The translations under genes and the position numbers were made by a program. A model generated the notes under the pieces. The model saw only the letters and a program-made list of their open reading frames with translations. It ran no database searches and was not told the DNA's origin. This document shows, in pieces, positions 9,225 through 62,002 of a stretch of 64,000 bases of DNA (within the stretch, counting starts at the first letter, position 1; every line of letters starts with the position of its first letter). Source of the stretch: an uncultured Chloroflexia bacterium (GTDB taxonomy: Bacteria; Chloroflexota; Limnocylindria; QHBO01); NCBI GenBank assembly GCA_963816215.1, contig CAWFKB010000007.1, positions 89,202 through 153,201 of the forward strand, written 5' to 3'.

Positions 9225-9276
9225 AGGGTCGGTGAGGATACACCCGGTCTTCCAGCCCCCCAAACCGGCCGTAGGG

Positions 9277-11129: not shown

Positions 11130-11187
11130 CAGGCGCCGGACGGTACCCGATCGGCCCCGGCCCCGCAGCGATGTGTACGATCGGCGC

Positions 11188-15284: not shown

Positions 15285-15345
15285 GTCGGTCCGAGTCTAG
15301 GCGCCCGCTTGACGGGCGCCATCGGTCCGGCCACCCTTCGCGCCG

Positions 15346-19643: not shown

Positions 19644-19717
19644 TCGGCCGACCCGTCTGATCGGCGGTGCTAGGATGGCCGCCGCTTCCGTCCCACGAGC
19701 ATCGAGGAAACCCGCCC

Positions 19718-45755: not shown

Positions 45756-46745
45756 CTACCCGCTGACCGTTGCCTGGGCCGTCGAAGCCTTGAACGTCAG
45801 CCCCCGCTCGAGTTTGGCCTGCACGACGTGGTACGCGATGAGCAGCTGGGTGAGGGCCAACGGGTCGGAGTGCCTCTCGACGCTGCCGTCGAGGTAACTG
45901 CCGATCTCGTCCGGTCGCAGATGACGATGGGTCTCCATGTGCGCCCAGATCCGCTCGTCGAGCTCGAGAGCGCGCGAGGGTGAAACGGTCCCGTCGATCT
46001 CCAGGATCGAGGTACCCGGAGCGTCCGCCTCCGGCTCGAGGCGAATCGGAGGCGGGTCGTCCCGCCCAGCGCTCGCCAGCACGTCCTCGAGGTCGAGATG
46101 CGGCAGCCCGGCGCCGAGCCGCAAACGCACATTCAGATGGGCATCGTCATCGACCGCCGTGCCCGCAAGGAAATAGCCGGGTGGCGGGTAGAACTGGACG
46201 AGCAGGTCGGCGCGCTCGCGCTGAGGTGCGAGGTACAGCCGGTGGTCATCGAGCCTGTCGACGATCTGGCGAATCACCTGCGGCACGCTGTACCCACGCT
46301 CCGCGCAGTCCCGCTTCACCTTCCATGCCCACTTCAGCTCCTCCTGCGGCTGGAGCCACACCCGAACGTCGAACGCGCTCCGGAGGCTCGCCGTCAGCAG
46401 GGGGAAGAGGCCGCGGATGACGACGATCTCCCGCGGGTCGACCTCCTCGCGCGGGCCGAAGGTCCCCGTCGAGTGGTCGTACGTTGGCTTCGAGACGATC
46501 TCGCCGCGCGCGATGGCTGCAACCTGCCGCTCCATCAACTCGATGTCATTGGCAGCCGGGTTGAGGGCCGTCACGCCGAGCCGCTTCCGTTCAGCCCGAT
46601 CCAGCTTGTGATAGTCGTCCAGGCACAGGTTCGTGATCCGTTCCGCGCCGAAGATCCGATACAGGCCCCTGACCAGGGTGGTCTTGCCGCTGCCGCTGTC
46701 GCCTCCGACGGCCACCATCACGGGACGGCCGGTCGTCGTCGCCAC
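45756..46745 (-). CDS. prk: Phosphoribulokinase
   Basis: PRK/uridine-kinase fold with VMVAVGGDSGSGKTT P-loop and ITNLCLDDYHKLDRAERK. GTG start 2 nt after the RuBisCO stop. Confidence 0.75.
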   Translation of the reverse strand: MATTTGRPVMVAVGGDSGSGKTTLVRGLYRIFGAERITNLCLDDYHKLDRAERKRLGVTALNPAANDIELMERQVAAIARGEIVSKPTYDHSTGTFGPREEVDPREIVVIRGLFPLLTASLRSAFDVRVWLQPQEELKWAWKVKRDCAERGYSVPQVIRQIVDRLDDHRLYLAPQRERADLLVQFYPPPGYFLAGTAVDDDAHLNVRLRLGAGLPHLDLEDVLASAGRDDPPPIRLEPEADAPGTSILEIDGTVSPSRALELDERIWAHMETHRHLRPDEIGSYLDGSVERHSDPLALTQLLIAYHVVQAKLERGLTFKASTAQATVSG

Positions 46746-46747
46746 GG

Positions 46748-48085
46748 TCAGAACCTCACGTCCGACCACAGGTCGAGGGCCTGGCGCAACTCGGGACAGC
46801 TCTGTGCCGCATGCTGGAGTGTCTGCCCGGCAGCGACCGCCTCGACCGCGGCGCGCGCCGCAACTGCGCCGGCTCGGCTCCCTCCGGGATGCCCATGCAC
46901 GCCGCCGCCGAACAGGAAGAAGGCATCCGTGCCGAAGACCGCGTGGAGCTGGGGGAGGTGGCCCGGGTGCAGGCCGCCCGAGGCCACGGGCACGACAGGT
47001 TTGATCGCACCCCACTCCTGGTCGAACAGCGTCCCGCCGCCGGCGGGTGCAAATGCGGCGGTCATCATGCGGCGCCGTTCGCCCATCTCCTCGATCGTTC
47101 CTTCGAGCTTCCCCACGCCCGTGCCGACATGGAGATGATCAACGCCCATCAACCGCGCCCACTTTGCGATGACCAGGAAGTCCACGCCGTGATCGGGGTG
47201 ACGATCCATGACCGCGTGCATGGCCCGGTGTGCGTGCAGCGCCAGTCCCAGGCGCTCAGCCTCCGCACGGAGAGACGCGGTCGCCGCAAAACCCGCCGTC
47301 AGAAAGTCGACCATCACGAAACGTCCCCCCCGATCGGCGACCACGTTGGCGCGGCGAAGCATCTCCTCGGTGTTGGCGGCGGTGACGTTGGCCCAGTAGC
47401 CCTTGCGCTCTCCGGTCTCGGCCTCGGCGCGCTGCACGAGCTCAAGTGTTCGCTCGATGCGTTCGTCAAAGGGAGACCACGCCTGACTGTTGAGGTTCTC
47501 GTCGTCCTTGATGGTGTCGATCCCGCCGCTCAGGGTCTCGTAGGCGCGTCGTGCATGCTCAGCCGGCGAGAGTCCCAGCTTCGGCTTAATGGTTGAGCCC
47601 GTGAGCGCCCTGCCATGCACGTTCAGCTTCTCCCGAACGCCCGCCATGCCGAAGGCCGGCCCCGGGAAGGAATCGACCAGGGGGAGCGGGATGCGCATGT
47701 CGAGCAGGCGGAGCGCGCTCACCGCCTTGAAGCCGAACACATTGCCGACCACGCTGGACAGGATGTTCGGAATGCTGCCGAACTCGAACAGGTCGATCGG
47801 GTACGCGATCCAGACGAGGCCGTTGGCGATCCGGTACACGCGCGCCCGAAGCTCGTAGGCCAGACCTTCGTCGTCCTCGCCGACCTCGGTCCACGTCCCG
47901 GTCGAGGATTCGGCCGCCACCGCAGCCGCGGCCTCTTCCATCGACGTGTCCGCCCGCGGAGCGACCTTGAACGCGACCAGCAGATCCGTCGCAATCGGCA
48001 CGTAGTCGAGGGCCAGGTACAGCTCCTGGTACGAGTGGACTCCACGGGTCCGCTCAGGTCCTGTCCGCGCGGTGGTCTGGCTCAC
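46748..48085 (-). CDS. rbcL: Ribulose-1,5-bisphosphate carboxylase/oxygenase large subunit (no small subunit nearby; form II/III-like)
   Basis: 445 aa with the active-site residues of a genuine RuBisCO: GSTIKPKLGLS, GGIDTIKDDENLNSQ, HAHRAMHAV, HLHVGTGVGKLEG, PVASGGLHPG, LFGGGVHGHPGG. N-terminal GTWTEV and VGNVFGF. Confidence 0.85.
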   Translation of the reverse strand: MSQTTARTGPERTRGVHSYQELYLALDYVPIATDLLVAFKVAPRADTSMEEAAAAVAAESSTGTWTEVGEDDEGLAYELRARVYRIANGLVWIAYPIDLFEFGSIPNILSSVVGNVFGFKAVSALRLLDMRIPLPLVDSFPGPAFGMAGVREKLNVHGRALTGSTIKPKLGLSPAEHARRAYETLSGGIDTIKDDENLNSQAWSPFDERIERTLELVQRAEAETGERKGYWANVTAANTEEMLRRANVVADRGGRFVMVDFLTAGFAATASLRAEAERLGLALHAHRAMHAVMDRHPDHGVDFLVIAKWARLMGVDHLHVGTGVGKLEGTIEEMGERRRMMTAAFAPAGGGTLFDQEWGAIKPVVPVASGGLHPGHLPQLHAVFGTDAFFLFGGGVHGHPGGSRAGAVAARAAVEAVAAGQTLQHAAQSCPELRQALDLWSDVRF

Positions 48086-48190
48086 GGCACGCTCATGCCT
48101 CGGATGTTTGAGTCAGCCTCGCAAACCACCGGCCCGCTGGCATAGGGCCATTTGTACCGAAAACGCCGAACTACCCGCTGACCGGCACGA

Positions 48191-48265
48191 TGGAGCCGAA
48201 GGTGGGATTCGAACCCACGACCGACGGTTTACGAAACCGTTGCTCTACCCCTGAGCTACTTCGGC
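48191..48265 (-). tRNA. tRNA-Thr (anticodon CGT)
   Basis: Hand-folded: acceptor GCCGAAG/CTTCGGC, anticodon stem ACGGT/ACCGT with loop TTCGTAA, T-loop TTCGAAT, discriminator T + CCA encoded. Confidence 0.85.
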
Positions 48266-48331
48266 CTGGCGCCGCGCGATTCTACCGCCTGATCCTTCGG
48301 ACGCCAGATCGGTCCGCTACCCTCGGATCGC

Positions 48332-48823
48332 ATGACTGACGAAGCGCCTGTCCTTCGCGCGCCCACATCGTCGGACTACGACATCCTGATCGGTCAGATC
48401 AATGACTGGTGGGGCGGCCGCGAGATGCGCCACCTGCTGCCGCGCCTCTTCTTCCAGCATTTCGCCCCGCTTTCGTTCGTCGTGGACGGAGATGGCGACG
48501 CGGGACCCATCGCGTTCCTCATCGGCTTCGTGTCGCAGACGGACCCGGACCTGGGCTACATCCACTTCGTGGGCGTCCACCCAAATCGCCGCCGCGAGGG
48601 ATTGGCCGGACTGATGTACGAGACGTTCTTCGCGAAGGCTCGGGCGCGCGGCGTCCGGCGGGTGATGGCCCTCACCTCCCCGGTGAACCGCACGTCCATC
48701 GCCTTCCATCGGTCGATGGGCTTCACCCCGCACCCGGGCCCGGCCGAAGCGGACGGGATCCCGTACCAGCCGGACTACGACGGACCGGGCGACGACCGGG
48801 TGGTGTTCGAGCGACCGGTCTGA
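48332..48823 (+). CDS. GNAT-family N-acetyltransferase
   Basis: 163 aa, with an acetyl-CoA-binding-like segment HPNRRREGLAGLMYETF. Confidence 0.7.
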   Translation: MTDEAPVLRAPTSSDYDILIGQINDWWGGREMRHLLPRLFFQHFAPLSFVVDGDGDAGPIAFLIGFVSQTDPDLGYIHFVGVHPNRRREGLAGLMYETFFAKARARGVRRVMALTSPVNRTSIAFHRSMGFTPHPGPAEADGIPYQPDYDGPGDDRVVFERPV

Positions 48824-48824
48824 C

Positions 48825-49679
48825 TCAGGCCGTGGGCGCGGCCCAGCCGTGGAGCAGCTCGTCGTGGTACCGCGGCCCCCGATCCAGGGTCTTGGGGATG
48901 GGCGCCATCCTGGCCCGGCCCCGCTGGACGAGGGCGAAGTAGGGACACAGGTCGGTGAGCGGGCACAGGCCGCAGATGGGGCGCGGAGCACGGCACACCT
49001 CCCGTCCATGGCGAATGAGCAGGACGTGGCCCGCGTACATGGACTCCGGCGGGACGACCTCCTCGAGCAGGTCGTGAGCTCGGGTCAGATCGGTCCGCTT
49101 GGGGATGAGGCCCAGCCGCTCGGCGACGCGATAGACGTGGGTGTCCACCGGCAGCGCGGGCCGGCCGAACGCGAACAGGAGCACGATCGAGGCGGTCTTG
49201 CGCCCGATGCCCGGCAGTGCCACCAGCCAGTCCCGCGCCTGGTCGAGCGGCCACTCGGCCAGGAATCCCAGGTCCCAGGTCCCGTTGGTGGCGTCGCTGA
49301 CCTCGGCCAGGACCTGCTGGATGCGCCGCGACTTGGTTGGCGCAAGGCCGCCGGCACGGATCACGTCCTCCAGCTCGTCGGTTGGGGCGGCGAGGACCGC
49401 GTCCCAGCCGGGATAGGCGGCCTGCAGCGCGACGAACGCGCGGTGCGAGTTCGTGTCGGCCGTGTTCTGGGCCAGGATGGTGAGGACCAGCTCGGCCACG
49501 GGGTCCAGGCGCGGGCCCGACCAGGTGGGCCAGCCGTATCGCTCGGCCAGGCGGTCGAGGATGGGACCGATCCGCTCGCGCCGCACCCGGCGCTGCGCGG
49601 TGAGCCGGCGCCGTTTGGCGGCCGCCTTGGCAGCCTTCGCGGCTTTCGCGGTCGCCTTGGCCGAGGCCTTGGTGGCCAC
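48825..49679 (-). CDS. nth: Endonuclease III (HhH-GPD, 4Fe-4S) with Lys/Ala-rich N-terminal tail
   Basis: LPGIGRKTA HhH motif and FeS cluster C-x6-C-x2-C-x5-C. N-terminal ATKASAKATAKAAKAAAKRRR tail. GTG start 2 nt after the glycerate kinase stop. Confidence 0.8.
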   Translation of the reverse strand: MATKASAKATAKAAKAAKAAAKRRRLTAQRRVRRERIGPILDRLAERYGWPTWSGPRLDPVAELVLTILAQNTADTNSHRAFVALQAAYPGWDAVLAAPTDELEDVIRAGGLAPTKSRRIQQVLAEVSDATNGTWDLGFLAEWPLDQARDWLVALPGIGRKTASIVLLFAFGRPALPVDTHVYRVAERLGLIPKRTDLTRAHDLLEEVVPPESMYAGHVLLIRHGREVCRAPRPICGLCPLTDLCPYFALVQRGRARMAPIPKTLDRGPRYHDELLHGWAAPTA

Positions 49680-49681
49680 CC

Positions 49682-50857
49682 TCAGCGACGGGCGCCGAGG
49701 CGTCGGCCGATTCCGATGGTGCGGGCAACCCGGGCTGCGGCGTTGGCCAGGAGGCGCTCGGTGTCGGCCATGGCGGAGTCCAGCTCGACCGGTCGATCGA
49801 TGATCGGCTGGACCACGGCGAAGGCACCAGATGCCTCCAGGATCTCGGCCCCGGGGCCGAGGCCGCCGCACAGGAGGGCCACGGGGATGCCGCGCGCGTA
49901 GTGAGCCACGCCCAGCGCCGCCTTGCCGGCCAGGGTCTGCTCGTCGGCTCGTCCCTCGCCGGTGAGGACGAGATCCGCGTCCTGGAGGGCGGCGGGCAGC
50001 CCCACCAGCTCGGCCACCTCCTCGACTCCCGGAAGGACGACCGCTGACGTGAAGCCCAGCAGGCCGGCGGTCGTGCCGCCCGCGGCGCCGGCCCCCGGAA
50101 CGTCGGTGACGTCGCGACCGGTTGCCCGCCGGATCTCGGCGCCCCAGCGGACGAGCGCGGCATCGAGCTCCGCCACGGTGGCCGCATTGGCGCCCTTCTG
50201 GGGGGCGAAGGTCGCAGCCGCCCCGGCAGGCCCGGTCAGCGGGTTGGTGACATCCGAGGCGATCACGATCTCCGTCCCCGCCAGCCGTGGATCGAGTTCG
50301 TCCACCTCGACGTGATCGAGGTTCGACAACGCGGCGCCGCCATCGGGCAGCGGCTCGCCCCGCGCGTCCAGCAGCCGCAATCCGAGTTCCACCAGCAGGC
50401 CGGCGCCCCCGTCTGTCGTCGCCGAGCCACCGAGGCCCACCACGATCCGGCGTGCGCCCGCATCGAGGGCGGCGCGGATGACCCGGCCCGTCCCGCGTGT
50501 GGACGCCGTGCGCGCGTTGGCCGGCGTGCGCTCGGCAGCCGAGAGCCGTGCCAGGCCGCTGGCCTCGGCCATCTCCACGAACGCGGACGATCCAGAGTCC
50601 ATGGACAGCCAGGCGGCCTCCACCGGACGGCCCAGCGGGTCCACCGTGGTGCACACCTGCCGCGTGACCTGCTCCCCGTTGGCCGCGGCGATGGCCGTCA
50701 GCGTTCCCTCCCCGCCGTCCGCCATCGGGATCTGCAGGATCGTGTCGTCGGGTCGGATCGAAGCCCAGCCACGAGCGATGGCCTCGGCCGCGGCCACCGA
50801 GTCCAGCGCGCCGCCGAACGAGTCGGGAGCGACCACCACCCGCAGGGCGGGGCTCAC
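49682..50857 (-). CDS. Glycerate kinase (GlxK/GarK family)
   Basis: 391 aa, glycerate-kinase family throughout (VVAPDSFGG..., GGGAGLL...). ATG overlaps the upstream stop (ATGA). Confidence 0.8.
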   Translation of the reverse strand: MSPALRVVVAPDSFGGALDSVAAAEAIARGWASIRPDDTILQIPMADGGEGTLTAIAAANGEQVTRQVCTTVDPLGRPVEAAWLSMDSGSSAFVEMAEASGLARLSAAERTPANARTASTRGTGRVIRAALDAGARRIVVGLGGSATTDGGAGLLVELGLRLLDARGEPLPDGGAALSNLDHVEVDELDPRLAGTEIVIASDVTNPLTGPAGAAATFAPQKGANAATVAELDAALVRWGAEIRRATGRDVTDVPGAGAAGGTTAGLLGFTSAVVLPGVEEVAELVGLPAALQDADLVLTGEGRADEQTLAGKAALGVAHYARGIPVALLCGGLGPGAEILEASGAFAVVQPIIDRPVELDSAMADTERLLANAAARVARTIGIGRRLGARR

Positions 50858-52767
50858 GAGCTGAGCTCCTTGCGCCGGGCCAGGTAGGCGGGGATGGTGT
50901 TCATCGGCGGACGAATGGCGTCACCCACCTCGCGCACGTCCAGGGTGAATCGGCCGTTCTCCTGGCGGATCTGCTTCATGCGCTCCCCCATATCGGTCAG
51001 CAGCTCCAGGCGCTGGCGTTCCTCGAGCTTGGTGATGGCCGCCTTGAGGATGACGAACGCCATCCGGGACAGGTCAGGCAGGGACTGGTTGCGGTGGATG
51101 CGGCGCTCGAGGTCCACCTGGCCGATCCCGGACAGGCCCACGCGGTCGGCAATGTCGATGAGAAGACCGATTTCGACAGCGTAGCCGGTGAAGAACGGCA
51201 CCGATTCGAGCAGCTCGCGCCGTCCGGCGTATTCGCCCGACAGGGGCTGGATGACCCCGGACAGCTCGGGGAAGAACAGGTTGATCAGGGGCCGCGCCGT
51301 CAGCTCGGTGACCCGCCCACCCTGGTCCGGCTGGAGCTGCCCGCCAGTGACGATGGGACGCTGGTAGAAGCCCTTCACGTACTGGATCCGCGGCTCGCGG
51401 AGCAGTGGCCCCAGCAGGCCGTACACGAACCGGGGCTGGATGTTGCGGATGTCGGTGTCGACCCACACCACCAGGTCGCCGCGCAGCTCGTACAGGCTCT
51501 TCCAGAGCGCCTCGCCCTTCCCCACGTATGCGCCCAGCTCGGGGAGGATCTCGTCGTGCTGGCGGACGGCGGCGCCGAGCTCGCGGGCAATCTCGACCGT
51601 GCGGTCGGTGGAGGCCGAGTCGACGACCAGGAGCTCATCAACCAGCGGGACTCGGTCCATGAGCGCCTCTCGAATGCGGCGTATGGTCAGGCCAATCGTC
51701 TTCTCCTCGTTGAGGGTCGGGAGGCCCACGCTGACGGTCAGGGCCTGCCGTTCCTTGAGATCGACCAGCCGATGGAGGTCGCGGAACTCGCTGGCGTGGA
51801 ACGTGTTCTCCGCGAACCAGCGGTCAACAACAGTCGGCAGGGTGTTGCTCTCCTCGAACGCGGCATCGGCCGCCGGGAGGCTCCCGGCCTCGGCCCGCAG
51901 GTGCTCGAAGGTCCCCGCGGTCACGGGCTGTCGCGACTTCACCACCATCACCGTGGGGCGGGCGCGGGATGCCACCGTCTCCGCCAGGCGCCCGAACAGG
52001 CGACGCCCGGTGCCGCTCCCCGTGGGCTCCGCCGCGGCCCCGACCACCACCAGGTCGTGGTGGGCCGACTCGCGCAGGATGGCGCCGCGCACGGTCGGTG
52101 CCTCGATCACGAGCGGCTTGACCGTCACGCCCCGGGCATGCCGTTTGACGAGCCCGCTCAACGCCGCCTGGCTGCGGGCCAGCGCGTCGGGACCGCCCCC
52201 CGGCGGGACGACGTGAAGGGCCACCAGCTGGGCACCAAATCCGCGGGCCAGGTCCGCCGCGAGGGTCAGGGCCAGCTCGGCGTTGGGGCCGCCACGGACC
52301 GGGACCAGGATGGAGCTCACGCTCCCGAGGCCGCGCTGCTTGACCACGGCGATGTCACATGGCGCGTCGCGGACCACGTCGTCGATCGTGGTCGAGAACA
52401 CCGCTCTCCCGCGTTGTCCCTGTCGCGGAGGTCCGCCCCAGCCGAAGATGACGAGATCGGCCCCGATCTCGGCCACCGCCTCCACGATCCCGTCCGATGC
52501 CTGGCGGCCGATCCGAACCGCGGTCCGGACCTCGACCGACGCGTCATCGCGGAAGTTCGGCACCCGCTGCAGGAGGCGCCGCGCCTCACGAGCGCGGTTG
52601 GCGCCCTCGGCCAGGGACACGCCCTCGGGCACCTCGACGATGCCCAGGGCCGTGATCTCGGTCGCCCGCCGATGGGCCAGGTGCGAGCCGATCCGGACCA
52701 GGTCGCGCGCCGTCCGCGGGTTGGCCAGGGGCATGAGGATCCGATACGGCCCCCGGCGGCGCGCCAT
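50854..52767 (-). CDS. gpgS: Fusion of tandem universal stress protein (UspA) domains with glucosyl-3-phosphoglycerate synthase (GpgS)
   Basis: N-terminal about 300 aa are two Usp-like domains. C-terminal about 320 aa match GpgS closely: LPTLNEE, LVVDSASTDRT, GKGEALWKSL, GGRVTELTARPL, QPLSGEYA, GYAVEIGLLID, HRN. The ATG at 52767 overlaps the upstream stop (TGATG). Confidence 0.7.
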   Translation of the reverse strand: MARRRGPYRILMPLANPRTARDLVRIGSHLAHRRATEITALGIVEVPEGVSLAEGANRAREARRLLQRVPNFRDDASVEVRTAVRIGRQASDGIVEAVAEIGADLVIFGWGGPPRQGQRGRAVFSTTIDDVVRDAPCDIAVVKQRGLGSVSSILVPVRGGPNAELALTLAADLARGFGAQLVALHVVPPGGGPDALARSQAALSGLVKRHARGVTVKPLVIEAPTVRGAILRESAHHDLVVVGAAAEPTGSGTGRRLFGRLAETVASRARPTVMVVKSRQPVTAGTFEHLRAEAGSLPAADAAFEESNTLPTVVDRWFAENTFHASEFRDLHRLVDLKERQALTVSVGLPTLNEEKTIGLTIRRIREALMDRVPLVDELLVVDSASTDRTVEIARELGAAVRQHDEILPELGAYVGKGEALWKSLYELRGDLVVWVDTDIRNIQPRFVYGLLGPLLREPRIQYVKGFYQRPIVTGGQLQPDQGGRVTELTARPLINLFFPELSGVIQPLSGEYAGRRELLESVPFFTGYAVEIGLLIDIADRVGLSGIGQVDLERRIHRNQSLPDLSRMAFVILKAAITKLEERQRLELLTDMGERMKQIRQENGRFTLDVREVGDAIRPPMNTIPAYLARRKELSS

Positions 52768-54065
52768 CAGGACGGTTCCCTTTGCGCGCCAGCGGCCTGC
52801 GCCTGCCAGGCGCGCACGAGCCACGGCTTGAGGTCCTCGAACTCGCGCGCCTGGGCTTCGACCAGCCGCTCGGCCTGGTCGTCGGTCAGGTCACGGACCT
52901 CGTTGATGAATCCCGCCGTGCGCCCGAAGTACAGCCCCGTCAGCCCGGCCAGCAGGGCCTCGCGGTCCATCCCGGAGCGCTGGAAGGCCAGCAGCGCGTC
53001 GAACAGGCAGCGGATCCAGAGCTCCGAGGGAAAGGCGAAGGTGGACGGATCGTCCACGGACAGGGCCCGGACTCGCTCGAGCTGCTCCCCGGCCAGCACC
53101 CGCTTCCAGACCGTTCCCTCGGCCAGCCGCGCGTTGTCGAAGCCATGAACGAGCGCGGCCTGGTCCACCGTGATCGGCTCCGGGGCGATGACCCGCTCGA
53201 AACCGTACTCGGGCACCGGTTCGGAGCCCTTGATCGGCAGCCACTCGGCGGCCTGCTCTCCGGCCAGCCGGAAGAGGGTCCCGACCACCTGGCGGAACAT
53301 CGGTCCCAGGTCGCCGGCGGGGTCCTTGGGGTCGTGGACCTTGGCCCCCAGCCGGGTCTGGCACACCGCGAACCCGCCGGCCAGGGCGTGGTGGGTCATC
53401 CAGATGTCGATCCCGAACCGCGCCGTGCCCTCGTCCCAGTCGGGCAGCTCGAGCAGCGCCTTGACCAGGTCGCGGCTGATGGCGAACTCCCCGCCGATCG
53501 GCTGCCGCAGGCGACGCCCGTACAGGGTCCGGGTCAGCGGGTAGGCGATGTGGTTGGTGATCGTGCCGTCGTACTTGTGGCGGGCGTAGAGCGGCGCGAC
53601 GTAGTCGTAGCCGCCCTTCAGGATCGGTCCGGCCAGGAGCTCGATCCACTCGGGCACGATGCTGCGCAGGTCGGAGTCGACGAGGACGAGCGCCTCGACC
53701 TTCAGCTCGTGCGCGACCTCCAGCAGGGCGCGCACCGCCGATCCCTTCCCGCTGGGTCCCCGGTAGGTGACCGCGATCCGCCGCAGCCGGTGCGGGGGCC
53801 GGATGAGGATCATCTGCTCCAGGTAGTCGGGGCTCTCGGTCGTGACCGCCACCCGGGGCGTGTCGTCGGCGGAGCCGCCGTCCGCGTTCACGAGCACCGG
53901 TTTGAGGTCGGTGAAGTACTGGACCATGCCCGCCGTCGCGGCCCGCACCACGTACCCGATCGTGTCCGCATTCCCGAAGGACGGGATGCCCACCATGAGA
54001 TCCGCCTGGCCCACCCGGCGCACCGCGTTCCATCCGCGTGCGTCCAGAGCGGAGGCGACCTTCAC
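52767..54065 (-). CDS. GT-A-fold glycosyltransferase (GpgS/MpgS-like), specificity unknown
   Basis: GIPSFGNADTIGYVV and VNADGGSADDTP glycosyltransferase motifs. The GTG overlaps the upstream stop (GTGA). Confidence 0.6.
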   Translation of the reverse strand: MKVASALDARGWNAVRRVGQADLMVGIPSFGNADTIGYVVRAATAGMVQYFTDLKPVLVNADGGSADDTPRVAVTTESPDYLEQMILIRPPHRLRRIAVTYRGPSGKGSAVRALLEVAHELKVEALVLVDSDLRSIVPEWIELLAGPILKGGYDYVAPLYARHKYDGTITNHIAYPLTRTLYGRRLRQPIGGEFAISRDLVKALLELPDWDEGTARFGIDIWMTHHALAGGFAVCQTRLGAKVHDPKDPAGDLGPMFRQVVGTLFRLAGEQAAEWLPIKGSEPVPEYGFERVIAPEPITVDQAALVHGFDNARLAEGTVWKRVLAGEQLERVRALSVDDPSTFAFPSELWIRCLFDALLAFQRSGMDREALLAGLTGLYFGRTAGFINEVRDLTDDQAERLVEAQAREFEDLKPWLVRAWQAQAAGAQREPS

Positions 54066-54757
54066 CGGTTGATCACGCGCTTCTTGCGTCCCTTCCAGAA
54101 CAGGTTGGTGGGCCCGGGCGCCCGGTCGGGCTGGATGGCGATCACGATCCAGTCCTCGGTCGCGGTCCCCGGCTGGTAGCGCGAGTTGGCGTGCTTGGCC
54201 ACCGCCTGGCGGAAGCCGTTCTCGTGCCAGGCGTGGAACCACGACCCGAGCGGCATCTTGACCGATGGCGTGACTCGCACGCGGACACTCTCCGAGACCA
54301 GGCCCGACAGGAGCCGGCGCCGCTCCTGGTACGGCACGTCCCCCAGGAATTCGCCGTCGATCTCGACCACGTCCACCACCACGAACGCGCGCCGCTTCTC
54401 GAGCTCCGCGGGATCAGGCCCCTCTTCAGGCAGGTCGCCGGCCTCGTCGGCCAACGCCTCCGACCATCGCTCGGCCGCCGACCCATGGCCCAGGAAGGGC
54501 TGGGCGCTCCAGATCCCGTCGAGCACCGCCTGATCGGCGTCAACCGACACGGCGAGGACCTCGGCCAGCTCGTGGTAGAAGTCGTCGACCGGCACCCCCG
54601 ACCCATCGGTCAGGCGGACGGTCCCGTCGCTGATGGAAGCCACCAGGCGATCCCCGGTCCAGTACGGCTCGAACGACCAGTGCGGGCTGTTGATGCTCAC
54701 TCTCGACTCGGTCGCGAGCTGGGGAAGGATGGGCCCGACGCCGCGCTCGGTGGTCAT
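54062..54757 (-). CDS. ATP-dependent DNA ligase-like protein (second paralog) with motif-I Lys and motif-III Glu substituted. Probably non-catalytic.
   Basis: ILPQLAT...HWSFEPYWTGDR (motif I, K->Y); VLDGIWS (motif III, E->I); FVVVDVVEIDGEFLGDVPYQERRRLL (motif IV); NGFRQAVAKHANSRYQPGTATEDWIVIA (motif V/VI). ATG overlaps the helicase stop (ATGA). Confidence 0.55.
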   Translation of the reverse strand: MTTERGVGPILPQLATESRVSINSPHWSFEPYWTGDRLVASISDGTVRLTDGSGVPVDDFYHELAEVLAVSVDADQAVLDGIWSAQPFLGHGSAAERWSEALADEAGDLPEEGPDPAELEKRRAFVVVDVVEIDGEFLGDVPYQERRRLLSGLVSESVRVRVTPSVKMPLGSWFHAWHENGFRQAVAKHANSRYQPGTATEDWIVIAIQPDRAPGPTNLFWKGRKKRVINR

Positions 54758-56025
54758 CGGTACAGGTTGAGCTCGCCTTCCTCGACCTCCATCCCGACCT
54801 CGGTCTTGATGGCCTGCCAGGCGTCGAGGTCCCACTCCGCGACGAAGGTGATGGCCGTCCCCGCCTTGCCGGCCCGACCGGTGCGGCCCACGCGGTGGAT
54901 ATACGTGTCGGCGTCCTCGGGGATGTCGTAGCTCAGGACGTAGGGCAGGTCCATGATGTCGAGCCCCCGGCTGGCGACGTTGGTCGCCACCAGGAACTGG
55001 ATCTGGCCCGCCTTGAACGCCGCGAGCGTCTTCTCGCGCTCGCGCTGCGACAGCCCGCCGTGGAGGGCGGCCACGTTGCGCCCACGGCGCTTGAGGGACA
55101 TCGTCAGCCGGTCGACCCCGATCTGGGTGTGGCGGAAGACGAGGAGCCGATCGAACCCGAACGTATCGGCCAGCTCGACCATGGCCGCCACCTTGTCCTG
55201 CTCGGCCACGAAGTACACCAGCTGGCGGGTGGTCGCCACCGTGCGCAGCTCCGGCCGGATGGCCACGTGGTCCGCGTCACGGCGCATGAACCGGTCGCAG
55301 ATGCGCAGGATGGCGTACGGCATGGTGGCGCTGAAGAGGGCGGTCTGGCGCTGGCGCGGACAGCGGGCCAGGATCGTCTCCACGTCGACGATGAAGCCCA
55401 TGTCCAGCATCCGGTCCGCCTCGTCCAGGATCACGATCTGGACCGATTCCAGCCGCAGCTCCCCGCGTCGGATGAGGTCCAGGACACGCCCGGGGGTGCC
55501 GACCACGACCTGCGTCCCGCGGTGGAGGGCGGAGACCTGGCGGTCCATGGCCGCCCCGCCGTAGATGGCGACCGTTTTCACGTTCCGGAAACGACCGATG
55601 GCCGCGATCTCGGCGGTGACCTGCTGGCACAGCTCGCGGGTGGGGGTCAGGACCAGGGCCTGCACCGATTTCGACCCGGGGTCTACCTGCTCCACGATGG
55701 GAATGCCAAAGGCCGCGGTCTTGCCGGTGCCCGTCTGGGCCTGGCCGATGAGGTCATGGCCGGCCCGCAGCGACGGGATGGTGCGGGCCTGGACCTCGGT
55801 GGGGGTGACGTAGCCCATCTGCTCCAGGGCCCGGGCGATGGTGACCGGGACCTCGATCTCGCCGAACCGATAGCCCGCCGCGGCCGCGAGGACCGCGGCG
55901 GTCAGGGCCGAGGGGGGCTCGGCCGGCAGGTCGGTGGCGGGGGACGGACGGCCGTCAACGGCTGTCGGTGTGGTGGAAGCGCGGCGTCGGGTGCGGCGGC
56001 GAGGCGTGGTGGGAGTTTGCGGCAA
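54754..56025 (-). CDS. DEAD-box ATP-dependent RNA helicase
   Basis: Q-motif TPTEVQ, AQTGTGKT, DEAD (ILDEADRM), SAT, HRVGRTGR. I chose the TTG at 56025 (GGAG 7 nt upstream) because longer starts would overlap the divergent znuA. Confidence 0.75.
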   Translation of the reverse strand: MPQTPTTPRRRTRRRASTTPTAVDGRPSPATDLPAEPPSALTAAVLAAAAGYRFGEIEVPVTIARALEQMGYVTPTEVQARTIPSLRAGHDLIGQAQTGTGKTAAFGIPIVEQVDPGSKSVQALVLTPTRELCQQVTAEIAAIGRFRNVKTVAIYGGAAMDRQVSALHRGTQVVVGTPGRVLDLIRRGELRLESVQIVILDEADRMLDMGFIVDVETILARCPRQRQTALFSATMPYAILRICDRFMRRDADHVAIRPELRTVATTRQLVYFVAEQDKVAAMVELADTFGFDRLLVFRHTQIGVDRLTMSLKRRGRNVAALHGGLSQREREKTLAAFKAGQIQFLVATNVASRGLDIMDLPYVLSYDIPEDADTYIHRVGRTGRAGKAGTAITFVAEWDLDAWQAIKTEVGMEVEEGELNLYR

Positions 56026-56134
56026 CGAGGGCTCCGGTTCGAAAAACAGTGGTCGTGGGCCGATCGTAGCACGGGGTTCGGCGACTGGCCTGTCGCAGCC
56101 TGAACGCTTGACGAGACCGGGTATCATCCTCGTC

Positions 56135-57041
56135 ATGAGACACGGTTTCATCTCGGTTGGAGTCGCATCGGCCCTCACGGTCGGGATGCTCGCCGGCTGC
56201 ACGTCGTCTGCCAGCCCGTCGCCCGACGCCGCCTTGCACGTCGTTGCCACCACGACCGTGTTCGCAGACCTCGTGGCCCAGGTCGGCGGCGACCGGGTCG
56301 TCGTCCGATCCCTGGTCCCGGCCGGCGGAGAGCCCCATACCTTCGATCCGCGACCGTCGGACGTGATCGCGTTCGCCGATGCCGACCTCGTAGTCATGAA
56401 CGGGCTGGGACTCGATGACTGGGTGGTGGATCTCATGAGCGAGGCCGGCAGTGAGGCGCCGGTTCTCGTCCTGGGCGAGGACCTGCCCGGGTGCGGACTA
56501 CATCACCGACCCCGCTGAGGGCAGCACCAACCCCCACCTGTGGCTGAACGTCGCGTACGCCATCGGCTACGTCGATCGCATCGAGAGCGCACTCGCCGAC
56601 GCCGATCCGGACGGGACCGACGCCTACGCCCAGCGGGCCGACGCGTACCGGGCGGAGCTCGGCGACCTGGACACCTTCGCCCGATCGGAGCTGGCCGCCA
56701 TCCCAGAATCGCAGCGTCGGGTCGTTTCGTTCCATGACGCGTTCCCCTATTTCGCGGCGGCATACGGACTGGAGGTGGTTGGCACTGTGGTCGAGGCGCC
56801 AGGCCAGGACCCGAGCGCAGGGCAGGTGACGGCGCTGATCGACGCGATCCACGATTCCGGGGTCAGCGCCATCTTGAGCGAGGCTCAGTTCCCCGCCGAC
56901 CTCGTGGAGCAGATCGCCGCCGAAACGGGCGTGGAGGTCGTTTCGGACCTGTACAGCGACAGCCTGGGCGACCCGCCGGGTAACTCGTATGCGGGACTCA
57001 TGCGATGGGACGTGGAACGGATCAGCGAGGCGCTTCGATGA
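56135..57041 (+). CDS. znuA: Metal (zinc) ABC transporter substrate-binding lipoprotein, ZnuA/TroA family, with one apparent frameshift
   Basis: Lipoprotein signal MRHGFISVGVASALTVGMLAGC. TroA-fold N-half ends in-frame at about 56518, and the C-half (ADYITDPAEG...HLWLN...) continues in another frame from about 56490 (extra G in CCCGGG). Confidence 0.7.
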
Positions 57042-57871
57042 GCACGGACAATGACGCCGTGACATCCGACGTCGTGCTCCGGGACATCGACGCCGGCTAC
57101 GGCGAAACGGTCGCGCTCGAGCACATCAGCCTCGACGTCCCCGCCGGATCGCTGGTGGCGGTGGTCGGCCCGAACGGAGCCGGAAAGAGCACCCTCCTCA
57201 AGCTGATCGCGGGCCTGCTCAAGCCGTGGAGCGGTGACATCACGGTGCTCGGTGCCGTCCCCGGCGAACACGCCCATCGGGTGGCCTACGTCCCCCAGGC
57301 CGAGATGGTCGACTGGGCGTTCCCGGTCACGGTTTCGCAGGTCGTGATGATGGGTCGATATCCGCTCCTCGGCCCGTGGCACAGGCCCGGACGAGAGGAC
57401 ACTGCAGCCACGGAGCGCGCGCTTGACCGGATGGGCATGCAGGGCCTCCGCGACCGCCAGATTGGAGCGCTGTCAGGAGGGCAGCGGCGGCGGGTGTTCC
57501 TGGCCCGCGCCATGGCGGCCGATGCCCAGCTGTTCCTCCTTGACGAGCCGGTCACCGCCATCGACCCGGTGACCCAGGACGACATCATGGACGTGCTCGG
57601 GGAGGAGGCGGCCGCGGGGCGAACCGTGATCGCGAGCACCCACGACCTGGCCTGCGCCGCGGAGTGCTTCCAGCGGGTGGTGGCCGTGAATCGGACCATC
57701 GTCGCCGACGGCCCATCGTCCATTGCCCTCGACGCGGAGGTCCTGGCCCGCGCCTACGGCGGCCACCTGCTCCGCCTGGAAGGCGGGCGCGTGCTCGTCG
57801 ACGACGCCCACCATCACGACGAGCCGCCGGCCCACGAGCGCCACTTCCACGAAGGCGGTCGCGAGTCGTGA
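57038..57871 (+). CDS. znuC: Metal ABC transporter ATP-binding protein
   Basis: Walker A GPNGAGKST, signature LSGGQRRR, Walker B LFLLDEP. ATG overlaps the znuA stop (ATGA). Confidence 0.8.
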   Translation: MSTDNDAVTSDVVLRDIDAGYGETVALEHISLDVPAGSLVAVVGPNGAGKSTLLKLIAGLLKPWSGDITVLGAVPGEHAHRVAYVPQAEMVDWAFPVTVSQVVMMGRYPLLGPWHRPGREDTAATERALDRMGMQGLRDRQIGALSGGQRRRVFLARAMAADAQLFLLDEPVTAIDPVTQDDIMDVLGEEAAAGRTVIASTHDLACAAECFQRVVAVNRTIVADGPSSIALDAEVLARAYGGHLLRLEGGRVLVDDAHHHDEPPAHERHFHEGGRES

Positions 57872-58728: not shown

Positions 58729-59174
58729 CCGCCACCGCCGCCCGCCGGCTCCGCAAGGCAGGCCACCGCGTCACCAGCCAGCGCCTCGCGGTGGCCGACG
58801 CCCTGGCCGCCGTGCCCCGCCAGGTCACGGCGCAGGAACTCTGGGAAGGCATGCGCCCTCGATACCCGGCCATCGGCCGGGCGACCGTCTTCCGCACGCT
58901 CGAGGCCCTCAGCGAGGCCGGCCTGGCCCGGCGCCTCGAGCGGGACGGGCACGTGTACGCGTACGTCGCCTGCCGCCCGGCGCATCACCATCACCTGTCG
59001 TGCCGGGTGTGCGGCACCGTGACCGAGGTGGGCGAGGAGCTGGTGGCGGACCTCAGCCGTCGGGCACGGCAGGACCTCGGCTTCCAGATCGAAGACGCGA
59101 GGCTGGACTTCTATGGCGTGTGCCGCGCCTGCGCGGCAGCCGGCCTGGCGTCGAGAGCGAGCCCTAGGGGCTGA
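58725..59174 (+). CDS. zur: Fur-family regulator, Zur-like
   Basis: Fur fold with HHHHLSCRVCG...CRAC metal sites. ATG overlaps the znuB stop. Confidence 0.8.
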   Translation: MTATAARRLRKAGHRVTSQRLAVADALAAVPRQVTAQELWEGMRPRYPAIGRATVFRTLEALSEAGLARRLERDGHVYAYVACRPAHHHHLSCRVCGTVTEVGEELVADLSRRARQDLGFQIEDARLDFYGVCRACAAAGLASRASPRG

Positions 59175-60270
59175 CCCGGCCCGTCGCGACCTCGCGCATG
59201 GCGTCGGGGTCGCCGGCACCCGGGCCTACCCCATCGGTCTCGCCGGAGCCGGAGCGGCCGAGGTTGCGCGGCGGTCGCGGCTTGCGCTTGGCGTACCCCG
59301 TGGGATGGGACAGCTTCCAGGCCCATGCGTCGGCCAGCATCTGCTCCAGCGACGATTCGCGCGGGCTCCAGCCCAGGTCTCGACGGGCGCGGCGGGAGGA
59401 GGCCACCAGGCGCGGCGGGTCGCCCACCCGTCGACGGACGACGCGGGCCGGGATCGCTCGACCGGTGACCTTGCGGGCGGCCTCGATCACCTCGCGGACG
59501 GAGAATCCGGCCGCGGAACCGAGGTTGTAGACCTCGAACGAGGGCTCCGCCTCGCCGGTGGCCTCGAGGGCCAGCAGGTGGGCGGTGGCCAGGTCGCGGA
59601 CGTGGATGAAGTCCCGAATGCAGGTCCCGTCGGGGGTGTTGTAGTCCTGGCCGAAGATCCGGACGTCGGGATGCTCACCGGCGGCGACCTTGAGGATGAG
59701 CGGGATGATGTGCGTCTCCGGGTCGTGGTCCTCCCCGTTGCGCTCGGTGGCGCCGGCCACGTTGAAGTAGCGCAGGCTGATCGCCCGGAAGCCGTGGCAC
59801 GCCGCGTACCAGCGCATGGCGCCCTCGAACGCGAGCTTCGTCTCGCCGTACGGGTTGATCGGCTCGGTCCGGTCCGCCTCGGCGATGGGGACCCGCTTGG
59901 GCTCTCCGTACACCGCGGCGGTGGACGAGAACACGATCCGGGGCACCCGACGCTCGCGGAGTGCCTCGAGCAGCTTCACGCCGTTGCTGACGTTCTCGCG
60001 GTAGTACAGCTCCGGGTGCTCCATGGACTCGCTGACCAGGGAGCGAGCGGCGCAGTGGAGGACGGCCTGGATACGGTGCTCGCGAAGGACGCGCTCGACC
60101 CGGTTCTGATCGCTCAGGCTGCCCACCACCAGTCGCGCGCCGCGGACGACCGCGTCGCGGTGGCCGGTCTTCAGGTTGTCGTAGACGGTGACGTCATGGC
60201 CGGCGTCGATGAAGGTCTCGACGCTCGTCGAGCCCACGTATCCGGCGCCACCGACAACCAGGATCCGCAC
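59164..60270 (-). CDS. galE: UDP-glucose 4-epimerase
   Basis: VVGGAGYVGS Rossmann motif, catalytic YGETK, full-length NAD-dependent epimerase. Confidence 0.85.
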   Translation of the reverse strand: MRILVVGGAGYVGSTSVETFIDAGHDVTVYDNLKTGHRDAVVRGARLVVGSLSDQNRVERVLREHRIQAVLHCAARSLVSESMEHPELYYRENVSNGVKLLEALRERRVPRIVFSSTAAVYGEPKRVPIAEADRTEPINPYGETKLAFEGAMRWYAACHGFRAISLRYFNVAGATERNGEDHDPETHIIPLILKVAAGEHPDVRIFGQDYNTPDGTCIRDFIHVRDLATAHLLALEATGEAEPSFEVYNLGSAAGFSVREVIEAARKVTGRAIPARVVRRRVGDPPRLVASSRRARRDLGWSPRESSLEQMLADAWAWKLSHPTGYAKRKPRPPRNLGRSGSGETDGVGPGAGDPDAMREVATGRVSP

Positions 60271-60456
60271 GCAACCAACCTACTCGGCAGACCGAGGTGA
60301 CCGAAGCACGGGCGTGTCAACCCGTGGGGCACTGACACTCATGCGGGGAAGGGCTCCTCCGATGGGTCCGGGTCGCCGATTGTAGCAGCGGGTCGAGCGC
60401 ATTCCGATGGGGGCAGCCGGCCCGGTGGTGCGTCGGCGCACCACCGGCGAGGGTCG

Positions 60457-61813
60457 TCAGTCCTTGTTCGCGGCGAGGCGGTCCCGGGCGAGGGACAGCA
60501 GCGCGTCCCGCTCGTTGACCGATGGATCGTCCAGGGCCGCCTGGAGCAGGTCTTCGAGCAGCTGGCCGACCTGGGGTCCTGGCGCGAGGCCAAGCTCGCG
60601 CATGAGGTCCTCGCCGTTGACCGCCAAGCCACGGACCGACAAGACCGCGCCGGGTCGGAGAGCCGCGATCCGGTTCTCCAGCTCGTCGGCGGGGGCGTCG
60701 CCCGCCTCGGGGCCGGCCGATGCGGCCGTGTCCGCGCGACGGAGGGCCAGCACGTCGGCGAGCGGCTGCCCGGGACCGATGCGCTTGATGAACCGCCGCA
60801 CGGCGGCATCGGTCCATTCGGGGCCGTACTGGATGAGGTGGTGCCGGACGAGGTGCCGGACGCGTTCCACGTCGGCGCGTGAGAACGCGAGGTCTCGCAT
60901 CCGGGCCTCGACCAGGACGGCGCCCTCCGACTCGTGACCGATGAAGTGGCCATCCGCCGCGGTGGGCGCCTTGCCCACGTCGTGCAGGAGCCCGGCCAGG
61001 CGAAGGATCGGGTCCGCCGCCGGCAGGGCATCCACCGTCCGCAGCGAGTGGTCCAGTGCGTCGCCGGCCAGTGCCTTGCCCTGGGCAATGCCGCGCAGCG
61101 CGGCGAGCTCGGGGAGAACCACGGCCAGCAGCCGGAGACGCTCCAGGAGCGCGAAACCGCGCGAGGGGACCGGCACCGCCAGCAGGCGGACGAGCTCGTC
61201 GCGCACCCGTTCACCGGAGAGCCGTTCCGCGGAGGGGGCCAGCCGGCGGATGGCGGCTTCGGTGGGCGGGTCGATGGTCAGATCCAGGGTCGTCGCGAAC
61301 CGCGCGGCGCGCAGGAGGCGCAGCGCGTCCTCGGCGAATCGCTCCTCGGGATCTCCCACCGCGCGGAGAACGCCGGCCGCCAGGTCCGCCTGTCCCCCGT
61401 ACGGGTCGACCAGGTGCCCGCGCCGCGCCTCCAGGTCATCGGGAACCCAGGCCATGGCGTTGATCGTGAAGTCGCGCCGCGCGAGGTCATCGGTCAGGCT
61501 GGAGCCCCAGATGACCTCGTCGGGATGGCGCCGGTCGCGGTAGCCGCCCTCGGATCGGTAGGTCGTGATCTCGACGGCCATGTCGTCGGAGCGGACGGTC
61601 ACCGTCCCGAACGGGTTGGCCCAGGTGGAATCGGGGAAGAGCGCGGCGACGACCTCCGGGTGGGCAGAGGTCGCCACGTCCCAGTCACGGGCGGCTCCCC
61701 CCGCGGACCAGGTCGCGAACGCAGCCACCGACAAGGGCGGCCTCGTGGCCATCCGAGTTGAGGACCCGAAGGATCCGAGCGACGTCTCCCGGGAGTTGGA
61801 GGAACGGTTCCAC
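60457..61813 (-). CDS. cca: CCA-adding enzyme / tRNA nucleotidyltransferase (Pol-beta NTase + HD domain), with one apparent frameshift
   Basis: The N-terminus from GTG 61813 (ILRVLNSDGHEAALVGGCVRDLVRGG) then hits a stop. RDWDVATSAHPEVVAALF... and the HD domain (LHDVGK) continue in the next frame. The shift lies at a C6 run at 61696-61701. Confidence 0.7.
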
Positions 61814-61861
61814 CTCCGGATCGTGCGCCTCGAGGACGAGACTGCGCAACGCGAGCGACGC

Positions 61862-61890
61862 TTGACAGGTATCGGAATCCGTCGTAGTAC
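61862..61890 (+). promoter_or_regulatory. Candidate promoter TTGACA-N17-TAGTAC in the cca/protease divergent intergenic region
   Basis: Perfect -35 hexamer at 61862-61867 and a weak -10 at 61885-61890, about 110 nt upstream of the protease GTG. Confidence 0.25.
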
Positions 61891-62002
61891 GGCTCCCTCG
61901 ATTGGCCGGGGCGCGCGGCCGTTCACACCGTACCTGAAGGGGAGTGGCATCCGACAGATTGCAACGGGGCGTAGTTCCTCGAGCATCTGCCGAAGCCGTG
62001 CA

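Follow-up and report, generated by a model that had tools for sequence, protein, structure and literature searches.

Persephonella marina reportedly carries ggs, gpgS and gpgP in an operon-like cluster, which is said to encode both a single-step and a two-step pathway to glucosylglycerate. It is known that genes for glycerate kinase occur beside those for glucosylglycerate metabolism (PMC7178133). The array described here lies in a stretch of 64,000 nucleotides (hereafter the window; G+C ~70%) of contig CAWFKB010000007.1, from an uncultured bacterium of the Limnocylindria (assembly GCA_963816215.1). It consists of six successive minus-strand open reading frames (ORFs; positions 48825-56025 of the window), which encode a DEAD-box helicase, a ligase-like protein, a glycosyltransferase, a Usp-GpgS fusion, a glycerate kinase and an endonuclease III (Nth)-like glycosylase. 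A first-pass annotation, made earlier from the letters of the window, had proposed these six identities, and all of them were confirmed by Pfam and NCBIfam. The evidence assembled below tips somewhat towards a conserved cluster, probably co-transcribed in this genome, in which what would join a glucosylglycerate-type solute module to three nucleic-acid proteins is co-expression, not a common pathway. Bacteria of the Limnocylindria (class Ellin6529 in GTDB) abound in soil. In the literature searched, no paper was found that links them with glucosylglycerate or that describes this cluster, and a 2026 paper on Limnocylindria genomics is silent on these genes.

The solute module is most clearly identified by the Usp-GpgS fusion (637 aa; 50854..52767, minus strand). 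Its C-terminal GT81 domain (aa 314-626) scored 388 bits against NCBIfam model NF010496, and thus passed the GpgS equivalog cut-off of 262. Searches against solved structures returned the Rubrobacter MpgS/GpgS (3f1y, 2e-74) and a mycobacterial GpgS (7p5l, 1.6e-68), and DxD, PLSGE and the acceptor loop GGRVTE are all present in the domain. PLSGE was tied to discrimination against mannose in the M. tuberculosis structure paper (PMC2581804), and by analogy its presence favours glucose as the donor sugar. The N-terminal half of the protein (~aa 1-300) is a tandem Usp region; Pfam revealed two Usp stretches (1.4e-24; 87.7 bits, cut-off 24) in addition to Glycos_transf_2, and the Usp ATP motif (G-x2-G-x9-G-S/T) is only partly recognisable by eye in both copies. 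With the GpgS equivalog passed and two Usp stretches present, the fusion named in the first-pass annotation is upheld.

The gene preceding the fusion encodes a GT-A glycosyltransferase (432 aa, GTG start; 52767..54065, minus strand), a candidate single-step hexosyl-glycerate (glucosylglycerate) synthase. Its match to Pfam MGS_GT (3.8e-06) falls exactly at the cut-off of 27 bits, and its score against the NCBIfam GpgS model (62 bits) is under the cut-off of 262. The nearest solved structures are those of GpgS (3ckj, 1.6e-09) and of the mannosylglycerate synthase of Rhodothermus (2y4k, 4e-04). The protein has a DSD metal motif, and its invariant Ile169-Thr170 pair aligns with Val186-Thr187 of GpgS and with Ile138-Thr139 of mannosylglycerate synthase, the residues that bind the glycerate carboxylate (PMC2581804 for Val186/Thr187). 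It is ~26% identical to the GpgS domain of the fusion and is a paralogue of it, so that the earlier, general assignment as a glycosyltransferase stands and can be refined to a paralogue related to GpgS and mannosylglycerate synthase. Many homologues that are 68-84% identical bear the JGI label "glucosylglycerate synthase", which is an annotation only. An AlphaFold2 (AF2) model, based on a 20-sequence alignment of members all at least 68% identical, was poor (predicted local distance difference test score, pLDDT, of 54) and was not used.

The third member is a class-I (GlxK/GarK-type) glycerate kinase (391 aa, GTG start; 49682..50857, minus strand), which matched Pfam Gly_kinase at 1.2e-122 (410 bits) and TIGR00045 at 383 bits (cut-off 168). 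Together, the relatedness of the glycosyltransferase, the GpgS equivalog and the glycerate kinase identify, at the level of family scores, one coherent sugar-glycerate module of a known kind, in which the Usp fusion and the lack of a clustered GpgP are new. GalU, a source of UDP-glucose, is also encoded in the window. In the proposed scheme, the fusion would condense nucleoside diphosphate (NDP)-glucose with 3-phosphoglycerate, the phosphatase of the next step being absent from the cluster, and the glycosyltransferase would reach the same solute in a single step, with NDP-hexose and D-glycerate as its substrates. Glycerate kinase would join free glycerate to the phosphoglycerate pool, so as to supply GpgS or to recycle glycerate, and the tandem Usp domains would provide a built-in regulatory input. 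The product would be a hexosyl-glycerate, most likely glucosylglycerate, acting as a compatible solute. The cluster thus predicts that Limnocylindria have two parallel routes to a sugar-glycerate solute (probably glucosylglycerate), and that their GpgS has a regulatory Usp domain of its own.

The ligase-like protein (231 aa; 54062..54757, minus strand) consists of a LigD-type adenylation (nucleotidyltransferase) domain alone. DNA_ligase_A_M (4.8e-07) is its only Pfam match; no OB domain is present, and the protein stops after the nucleotidyltransferase domain, with a basic C-terminal tail. The family profile matches the ligase domain of M. tuberculosis LigD (1e-19), and an AF2 model (pLDDT 78) gave DNA-ligase adenylation domains as top Foldseek matches (E 7e-13 to 1e-12). 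The catalytic motifs were compared in a close alignment of 17 members, and in an alignment that included 13 distant members together with live ligases from a 50%-cluster library. Motif I reads EPYWTGDR in the window, compared to E-x-KWDG-x-R in live ligases. Its lysine is replaced by Y, F, A, S, L, H, Q or V in all 17 close and all 13 distant members, and the lysine of the covalent-nucleotidyltransferase motif KxDGxR is thus absent from every family member aligned. Motif III is DGIW in the window and DG followed by I, V, Y or F across the family, compared to DGE in live ligases, and motif V (DWIVIAI in the window) has no lysines. The Phe of motif IIIa and the Lys of motif IV are kept in the family, which also has an invariant insert of its own, W-x-A-Q-P-F-x-G-x-G-S, after motif III. 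The description "dead ligase-like" in the first-pass annotation was therefore apt: the motif I lysine (a tyrosine in the window), the motif III Glu and the motif V lysines are gone in every member. The protein is a pseudoenzyme, predicted from these motifs to be catalytically dead. Since it would be unable to self-adenylate, any activity left to it would be that of a partner that binds nucleotides or nucleic acids.

Homologues of the pseudo-ligase all come from metagenome-assembled genomes of Limnocylindria/Chloroflexota. It is the fastest-diverging member of the array, with identities to the window protein of 46-93% (median 51%), compared to medians of 66-79% for the other five genes. A wider family of ~235-aa, LigD-like, lysine-less proteins (motif EPLWSG-R, N-terminal WRPQ) occurs in related Chloroflexota (loci L085-L090, proteins P0251-P0309), where the genes usually come after those for an HNH protein, a CCA-adding enzyme, a TPR protein and an epimerase. 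The analysis delimits this ~235-aa family as one that appears to be without any residue required for covalent catalysis. Its database labels, "ATP-dependent DNA ligase" or "LigD", are misleading, and names of the LigD type would lead to over-calling of the capacity for non-homologous end joining (NHEJ) in these genomes. Live ligase and NHEJ components appear to be present elsewhere: Ku (8319-9368, minus strand; TIGR02772, 269 bits, cut-off 150) and a full-length three-domain ATP-dependent DNA ligase (13560-15296, minus strand) are encoded in the same window, 40 kb from the pseudo-ligase.

The remaining two proteins are a helicase and a glycosylase, which lie at opposite ends of the array. The DEAD-box RNA helicase (423 aa; 54754..56025, minus strand) matched Pfam DEAD at 7.9e-49 and Helicase_C at 3.3e-27, and its translation contains PTEVQ, AQTGTGKT, DEAD, SAT and HRVGRTGRAG, in turn the Q motif and motifs I, II, III and VI, by which DEAD-box (SF2) helicases are recognised. 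The gene starts with TTG behind a GGAG Shine-Dalgarno sequence, and an alignment of upstream regions showed that both are kept in relatives. The N-terminal ~50 aa are rich in Arg, Pro and Thr, and the protein is without a C-terminal RNA-binding extension, ending ~40 aa past motif VI. Its top NCBIfam matches, CshA (428 bits, cut-off 646), DbpA (378, cut-off 524) and RhlE (296, cut-off 743), are all below the equivalog cut-offs.

The endonuclease III-family glycosylase (284 aa, GTG start; 48825..49679, minus strand; Pfam HhH-GPD, 1.9e-10) carries its catalytic Lys within GRKTA and its Asp within VDTH, and its Fe-S motif reads C-X6-C-X2-C-X5-C. It scored 116 bits against TIGR01083 nth (cut-off 212) and 172 against the DR2438 model (cut-off 400); by these profile scores it is a member of the superfamily that is not assigned to the Nth equivalog. 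The protein begins with a basic extension, in which a Lys/Ala repeat (residues 2-22) is followed by an Arg-rich segment. The "histone-like Lys/Ala tail" noted earlier is thus present, at the N-terminus, but the repeat is confined to the window and its closest relative (L005), and what is kept across the class is the Arg-rich segment only (RRLAA-RR-RR). The second module would accordingly comprise a DEAD-box RNA helicase, a LigD-derived domain that does not self-adenylate and an Nth-type glycosylase/lyase with a basic N-terminal tail.

The array extends from the helicase TTG at 56025 to the Nth stop codon at 48825, and its genes are tightly joined. Reading of the minus strand, base by base, revealed that the helicase stop and ligase-like start codons share ATGA (54757-54754), that the ligase-like stop and glycosyltransferase start share GTGA (54065-54062), that the glycosyltransferase stop and fusion start overlap by 1 nt in TGATG (52769-52765), and that the fusion stop and glycerate-kinase start share GTGA (50857-50854). 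The glycerate-kinase TGA (49684-49682) is followed by GG and then by the GTG of the Nth-like gene at 49679, leaving a 2-nt gap. These are the junctions that had been listed in the first pass, except that the fourth is GTGA, not ATGA. Homologue alignments start at the overlapping start codons, which supports the starts chosen, and the -4/-1 overlaps were found again in ~15 species of the window's subclade. A 4- or 1-nt start/stop overlap is possible in 6 of the 32 co-directional adjacent pairs of the window; four of the six are in the array and the other two in the adjacent ABC-transporter/Fur operon, so that 4/5 array junctions compare to 2/27 in the rest of the window (Fisher p = 0.002). The tight junctions of the array are not typical of the window's genome.

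Signals for transcription were sought over the same region. Consensus scans for sigma-70 promoters and intrinsic terminators (47500-57500) found nothing and are uninformative for a GC-rich lineage; they were replaced by the empirically conserved motif TGNTANNAT. An extended -10-like promoter motif, TGCTACGAT, lies ~38 nt upstream of the helicase start codon (56063..56071, minus strand), and in aligned upstream regions GTGCTACGATC is kept ~40-50 nt before the helicase TTG. Counting both strands, TGNTANNAT occurs three times in the 64-kb window: upstream of the helicase (56063-56071, minus strand), upstream of an epimerase gene (60379-60387, minus strand) and near a thioredoxin gene (19668-19676, plus strand). 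It stands upstream of the helicase in 64 loci, with a background across loci of one per ~12 kb of strand, and no copy lies inside the array in the window or its subclade. Apart from the copies in one intergenic spacer that are discussed below, the other hits in arrays were two only, one assigned to the interior of the helicase gene of L037, the other past the ligase-like gene of L076, close to the end of that contig. The only deep-branch copy is upstream of the HNH gene. The tally took in five deep-branch loci of 16 kb each and, for 80 loci, the array plus leader; in it nearly every copy directly precedes the start of a gene (that of the helicase, epimerase, thioredoxin, HNH protein or glycosyltransferase), and so rare a motif could be used to mark promoters in this lineage. 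Against Rfam, the window gave two tRNAs only, with no riboswitch or leader in the array. Internal promoters or terminators, which the first-pass annotation had said would count against it if transcriptomics showed them, were looked for by motif scans, and no such site was found in the window array.

The presence of TGNTANNAT upstream of the helicase and its absence from the interior suggest that the window array is probably one six-gene operon. Short junctions, one promoter, no internal terminator and a kept gene order, the features by which operons are recognised, are all found at this level of prediction. Transcription would begin at the extended -10 promoter TGCTACGAT (56071-56063) and proceed through the six genes as one unit, and translation would be coupled via the overlapping stop and start codons. 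Beyond the array, a convergent gene for a GNAT acetyltransferase (48332-48823, plus strand) has its end only 1 nt away from the stop codon of Nth (48825). This arrangement leaves no space for an intergenic terminator, so that either transcript would have to end inside the other gene.

The conservation of the array was assessed by scanning one genome per species, which yielded 80 loci, and by mapping gene order with tblastn; all relatives recovered are metagenome-assembled genomes. Loss of the gene order, which the first-pass annotation had named as evidence that would count against it, was looked for among these relatives and not found: all six genes occur in order in 36 of the 38 species-level Limnocylindria loci with enough flank, and the other two have the helicase, ligase-like and Nth-like genes only. 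Downstream, synteny stops directly after Nth, the GNAT gene being common to the window and L005 only. The junctions within the sugar-glycerate trio and towards Nth are short in much of the class, with the 1-nt overlap of glycosyltransferase and fusion in 57/64 species, fusion and glycerate kinase overlapping by 4 nt in 28/51 and spaced by no more than 20 nt in 37/51, and glycerate kinase and Nth within 20 nt in 37/47. The overlap of helicase and ligase-like genes is confined to the window's subclade, the distance elsewhere being mostly 21-100 nt (median 37); that of ligase-like and glycosyltransferase genes is confined in the same way, with mostly tens to several hundred nt elsewhere (maximum 584). 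This distribution indicates, class-wide, two putative units, helicase plus ligase-like and glycosyltransferase through Nth. In most of the class a spacer parts the two, and in the window's subclade the 4-nt overlaps fuse them.

In one clade (L031, L039 and L066), the sugar-glycerate trio was lost together; the helicase, ligase-like and Nth-like genes were kept, and the ligase-like and Nth-like genes are now directly overlapping neighbours. Neighbour-joining analysis of the helicase and ligase-like proteins placed the cassette-less loci among six-gene loci, which points to secondary loss. This nesting rules out a history in which helicase, ligase-like and Nth-like genes formed an ancestral core and the cassette was inserted later. 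One further locus, L082, keeps the ligase-like, glycerate-kinase and Nth-like genes.

More distant loci, recovered as 50%-identity cluster representatives, form a deep branch with the order HNH, CCA-adding enzyme, TPR, epimerase, ligase-like, glycosyltransferase, Usp-GpgS, glycerate kinase and Nth. Identities to the window proteins are 33-35% for the ligase-like protein, 53-55% for the glycosyltransferase, 58% for the fusion and 42-47% for the Nth-like protein. Optional inserts are a GNAT gene between the ligase-like and glycosyltransferase genes, and a toxin-antitoxin pair or a PIN gene between glycerate kinase and Nth. No helicase was present in the deep-branch loci examined, and the helicase with its divergent Fur/zinc-transporter unit is limited to one order. 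These contexts suggest that the most persistent set is the ligase-like gene with the sugar-glycerate trio and Nth.

Several observations weigh against a co-expressed cluster with a glucosylglycerate-type module, as regards both its transcription and its chemistry. In some species unrelated genes have been inserted at three of the junctions, one of them on the opposite strand: L054 has an opposite-strand PAS-EAL gene between the fusion and glycerate kinase, L047 has formate-tetrahydrofolate ligase at the same place and YbjQ between glycerate kinase and Nth, and MerB stands between glycerate kinase and Nth in some species. The motif TGCTACCAT is found in the spacer between the ligase-like and glycosyltransferase genes in 18 loci of one subclade, which suggests that single-operon status is lineage-specific. 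The scan with TGNTANNAT follows one promoter class only, and in L087 and L090 the genes from ligase-like to Nth stand behind an opposite-strand MFS gene with no TGNTANNAT, which suggests that other promoter types exist. With respect to the pathway, Pfam revealed no GpgP, of either the HAD or the histidine-phosphatase type, in ~45 ORFs of the window, a few small ORFs being outside the scan, and the inserts of L054 and L047 are not GpgP either. The sugar specificity of the GpgS domain is uncertain: among solved structures, the domain is closest to Rubrobacter MpgS, an enzyme of dual specificity. The product of the glycerate kinase could be 2-phosphoglycerate (2-PG) or 3-phosphoglycerate (3-PG): the glycerate 2- and 3-kinase models scored 289 and 276 bits, both under their equivalog cut-offs, and both E. 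coli glycerate kinases yield 2-PG (PMC4378991).

The HNH, CCA-adding enzyme and epimerase genes are also present in the window (59164-62259), and both there and in the two deep branches they are as syntenic as the array, with functions unrelated to it. Part of the conservation of the array would thus be backbone synteny. One possibility, which we regard as tentative, is that the whole neighbourhood is a historical accident, in which a slowly rearranging backbone has kept the genes together, the overlaps reflect genome compaction, and no selective or regulatory benefit arises from proximity. The equal synteny of these unrelated genes (with or without TPR) is what such a backbone would give, and the clean loss of the sugar-glycerate cassette in one clade, the missing helicase of the deep branch, the tolerance of unrelated and even opposite-strand inserts and the internal promoter-like motif of 18 loci all fit with it. 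It accounts less well for the abrupt end of synteny directly after Nth, and for a block that is kept down to 33-35% identity of the ligase-like protein. Nor would it explain why, after cassette loss, the ligase-like and Nth-like genes overlap rather than disperse, why the array junctions are far tighter than the window background, or why glycerate kinase and Nth remain so close in 37 of 47 species. A single integrated system, with the pseudo-ligase and Nth-like protein as dedicated partners of the sugar-glycerate enzymes (either because a pseudoenzyme that senses nicks/AMP or nucleotides ties solute synthesis to the state of the DNA or of the energy supply, or because the glycosylase and glycosyltransferases share an unrecognised substrate), is improbable, since the persistence of the ligase-like to Nth set in both deep branches, which the helicase does not share, and the retained motif IIIa Phe, motif IV Lys and invariant insert, which suggest a conserved binding function, are set against a cassette-less clade that retains ligase-like and Nth, a ligase-like gene without the cassette in L085, a cassette without an adjacent Nth in L089, the fast evolution of the ligase-like protein and the absence of any known chemistry that joins these families.

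The co-expressed cluster of two separable modules is therefore the reading to which we give slight preference. The first pass had suggested that osmolyte synthesis may be tied functionally to nucleic-acid repair, which is not borne out. What is seen is co-location only: the modules are separable, inserts are tolerated, in one subclade the spacer between the ligase-like and glycosyltransferase genes holds a promoter-like motif and unrelated neighbours are equally syntenic. The helicase, moreover, is an RNA helicase and not a repair enzyme. The Usp domains, the compatible solute, the glycosylase for oxidative damage and the DEAD-box helicase could reasonably be hypothesised, as in the first pass, to make up a stress module, and the position of an RNA helicase and a base-excision enzyme beside solute genes offers a concrete hypothesis of co-regulation, to which no mechanism is attached. 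It is doubtful that the pseudo-ligase and the Arg-tailed Nth-like protein are dedicated parts, with the two synthases and the glycerate kinase, of a desiccation or stress system of the Limnocylindria. If they were, a dead ligase domain would have been repurposed as a nick-, AMP- or nucleotide-sensing subunit that links damage or energy status to solute synthesis; alternatively, the repurposed domain would bring in the glycosylase, joined in one order by the RNA helicase.

The surroundings of the array show further features. A palindrome, TGACGAG-N13-CTCGTCA (56109..56135), lies in the intergenic region between the helicase and the divergent znuA-like gene, and overlaps the znuA ATG at 56135 (plus strand). 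A related motif, TGATAC-N3-GTCTCA, is found beside the start of a Zn-transporter gene (ZnuA or Zip) in many relatives, and a Fur-family gene is part of the operon divergent from the helicase. The palindrome is a candidate for a Zur/Fur-family operator in a promoter region that it would have in common with the helicase operon. The znuA-like solute-binding gene itself (56135-57041, plus strand) is split into overlapping ORFs in different frames (55934-56518 and 56451-57041); its counterpart in L002 is a single 296-aa protein, that in L003 is split similarly, and the split could reflect either a frameshifted pseudogene or an indel error of long-read assembly. An apparent second frameshift affects a DAO-FAO_M-GCV_T (sarcosine/dimethylglycine oxidase-like) gene, which is split into 41269-42171 and 42146-43864 (plus strand) and is a single 808-aa protein in L002.

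On the other side of the array, a near-type-III RuBisCO large subunit (46748-48085, minus strand; TIGR03326, 494.4 bits, cut-off 497.45) and phosphoribulokinase (45756-46742, minus strand) are encoded directly 3′ of tRNA-Thr(CGT) (48191-48265). In L005, the order is Nth, GNAT and tRNA-Thr, with no RuBisCO within 4 kb, and in L002 Nth is followed straight by Peptidase_C26. The RuBisCO/phosphoribulokinase stretch has the look of a CO2-fixation island that is specific to this strain and sits at a tRNA site. Elsewhere in the window, one ORF (10930-13536, plus strand) encodes a kinase-aminotransferase fusion, with Pfam matches to an APH-type phosphotransferase (5.5e-22) and a class-III aminotransferase (1.7e-77).

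All components of the array come from known families. Variants for which no description was found are the fusion of Usp with GpgS, the LigD-like family that has no catalytic lysine, and the association of these genes throughout the class. Among nucleic-acid enzymes, E. coli Nth and the DR2438-type glycosylases of Deinococcus share with the Nth-like protein the HhH-GPD fold, the catalytic Lys and Asp and the four-Cys Fe-S motif, whereas the array protein falls under the equivalog cut-offs and carries a basic N-terminal extension. The ligase domain of M. tuberculosis LigD (PDB 1VS0, 6NHX) resembles the pseudo-ligase in profile and fold, in the Phe of motif IIIa, and in the Lys of motif IV with its SRY-PG segment. 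The pseudo-ligase differs in having no motif I Lys and Asp, no motif III Glu and no motif V lysines; the OB, polymerase and phosphoesterase domains of LigD are missing, and a family-specific insert follows motif III. The ligase-associated DEXH-helicase damage-response operon was considered as a model, and membership was ruled out by the NCBIfam scores. That operon, which comprises an Lhr-like DEXH helicase, an ATP-dependent ligase, an exonuclease and PdeM (TIGR04120-04123), is similar in that a helicase gene adjoins a ligase-family gene in the company of a DNA-processing enzyme. However, the helicase of the array is a DEAD-box RNA helicase that scored 57 bits against TIGR04121 (cut-off 850), the ligase-like protein is predicted to be catalytically dead and scored 16 bits against TIGR04120 (cut-off 400), and the array has neither the exonuclease nor PdeM.

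For the solute module, the known systems are closer. According to PMC7178133, which summarises Franceus et al. (2017), genes for glycerate kinase, GpgS or GpgP are found in the neighbourhoods of glucosylglycerate phosphorylase genes, and there, as here, the kinase is associated with glucosylglycerate metabolism. The array differs from those neighbourhoods in having no GH13_18 phosphorylase, its kinase standing beside two synthases and not beside a catabolic enzyme. Solved GT81 enzymes, namely Rv1208 of M. tuberculosis, GpgS of M. hassiacum and MpgS/GpgS of R. xylanophilus (3F1Y), match the C-terminal 320 aa of the fusion at 2e-74 to 1e-60. They are 324-387 aa in length, and only the fusion of the array has a tandem Usp N-terminus of ~300 aa. 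The cluster of P. marina, as it is said to be arranged, is similar in having a second glycosyltransferase beside gpgS, and hence two routes to one solute side by side; the array glycosyltransferase is likened to Ggs by this context and by the JGI label, not by comparison of the sequences. Unlike that reported cluster, the array is without GpgP, and has instead a GpgS fused to Usp domains, a glycerate kinase that follows it and nucleic-acid genes on its flanks.

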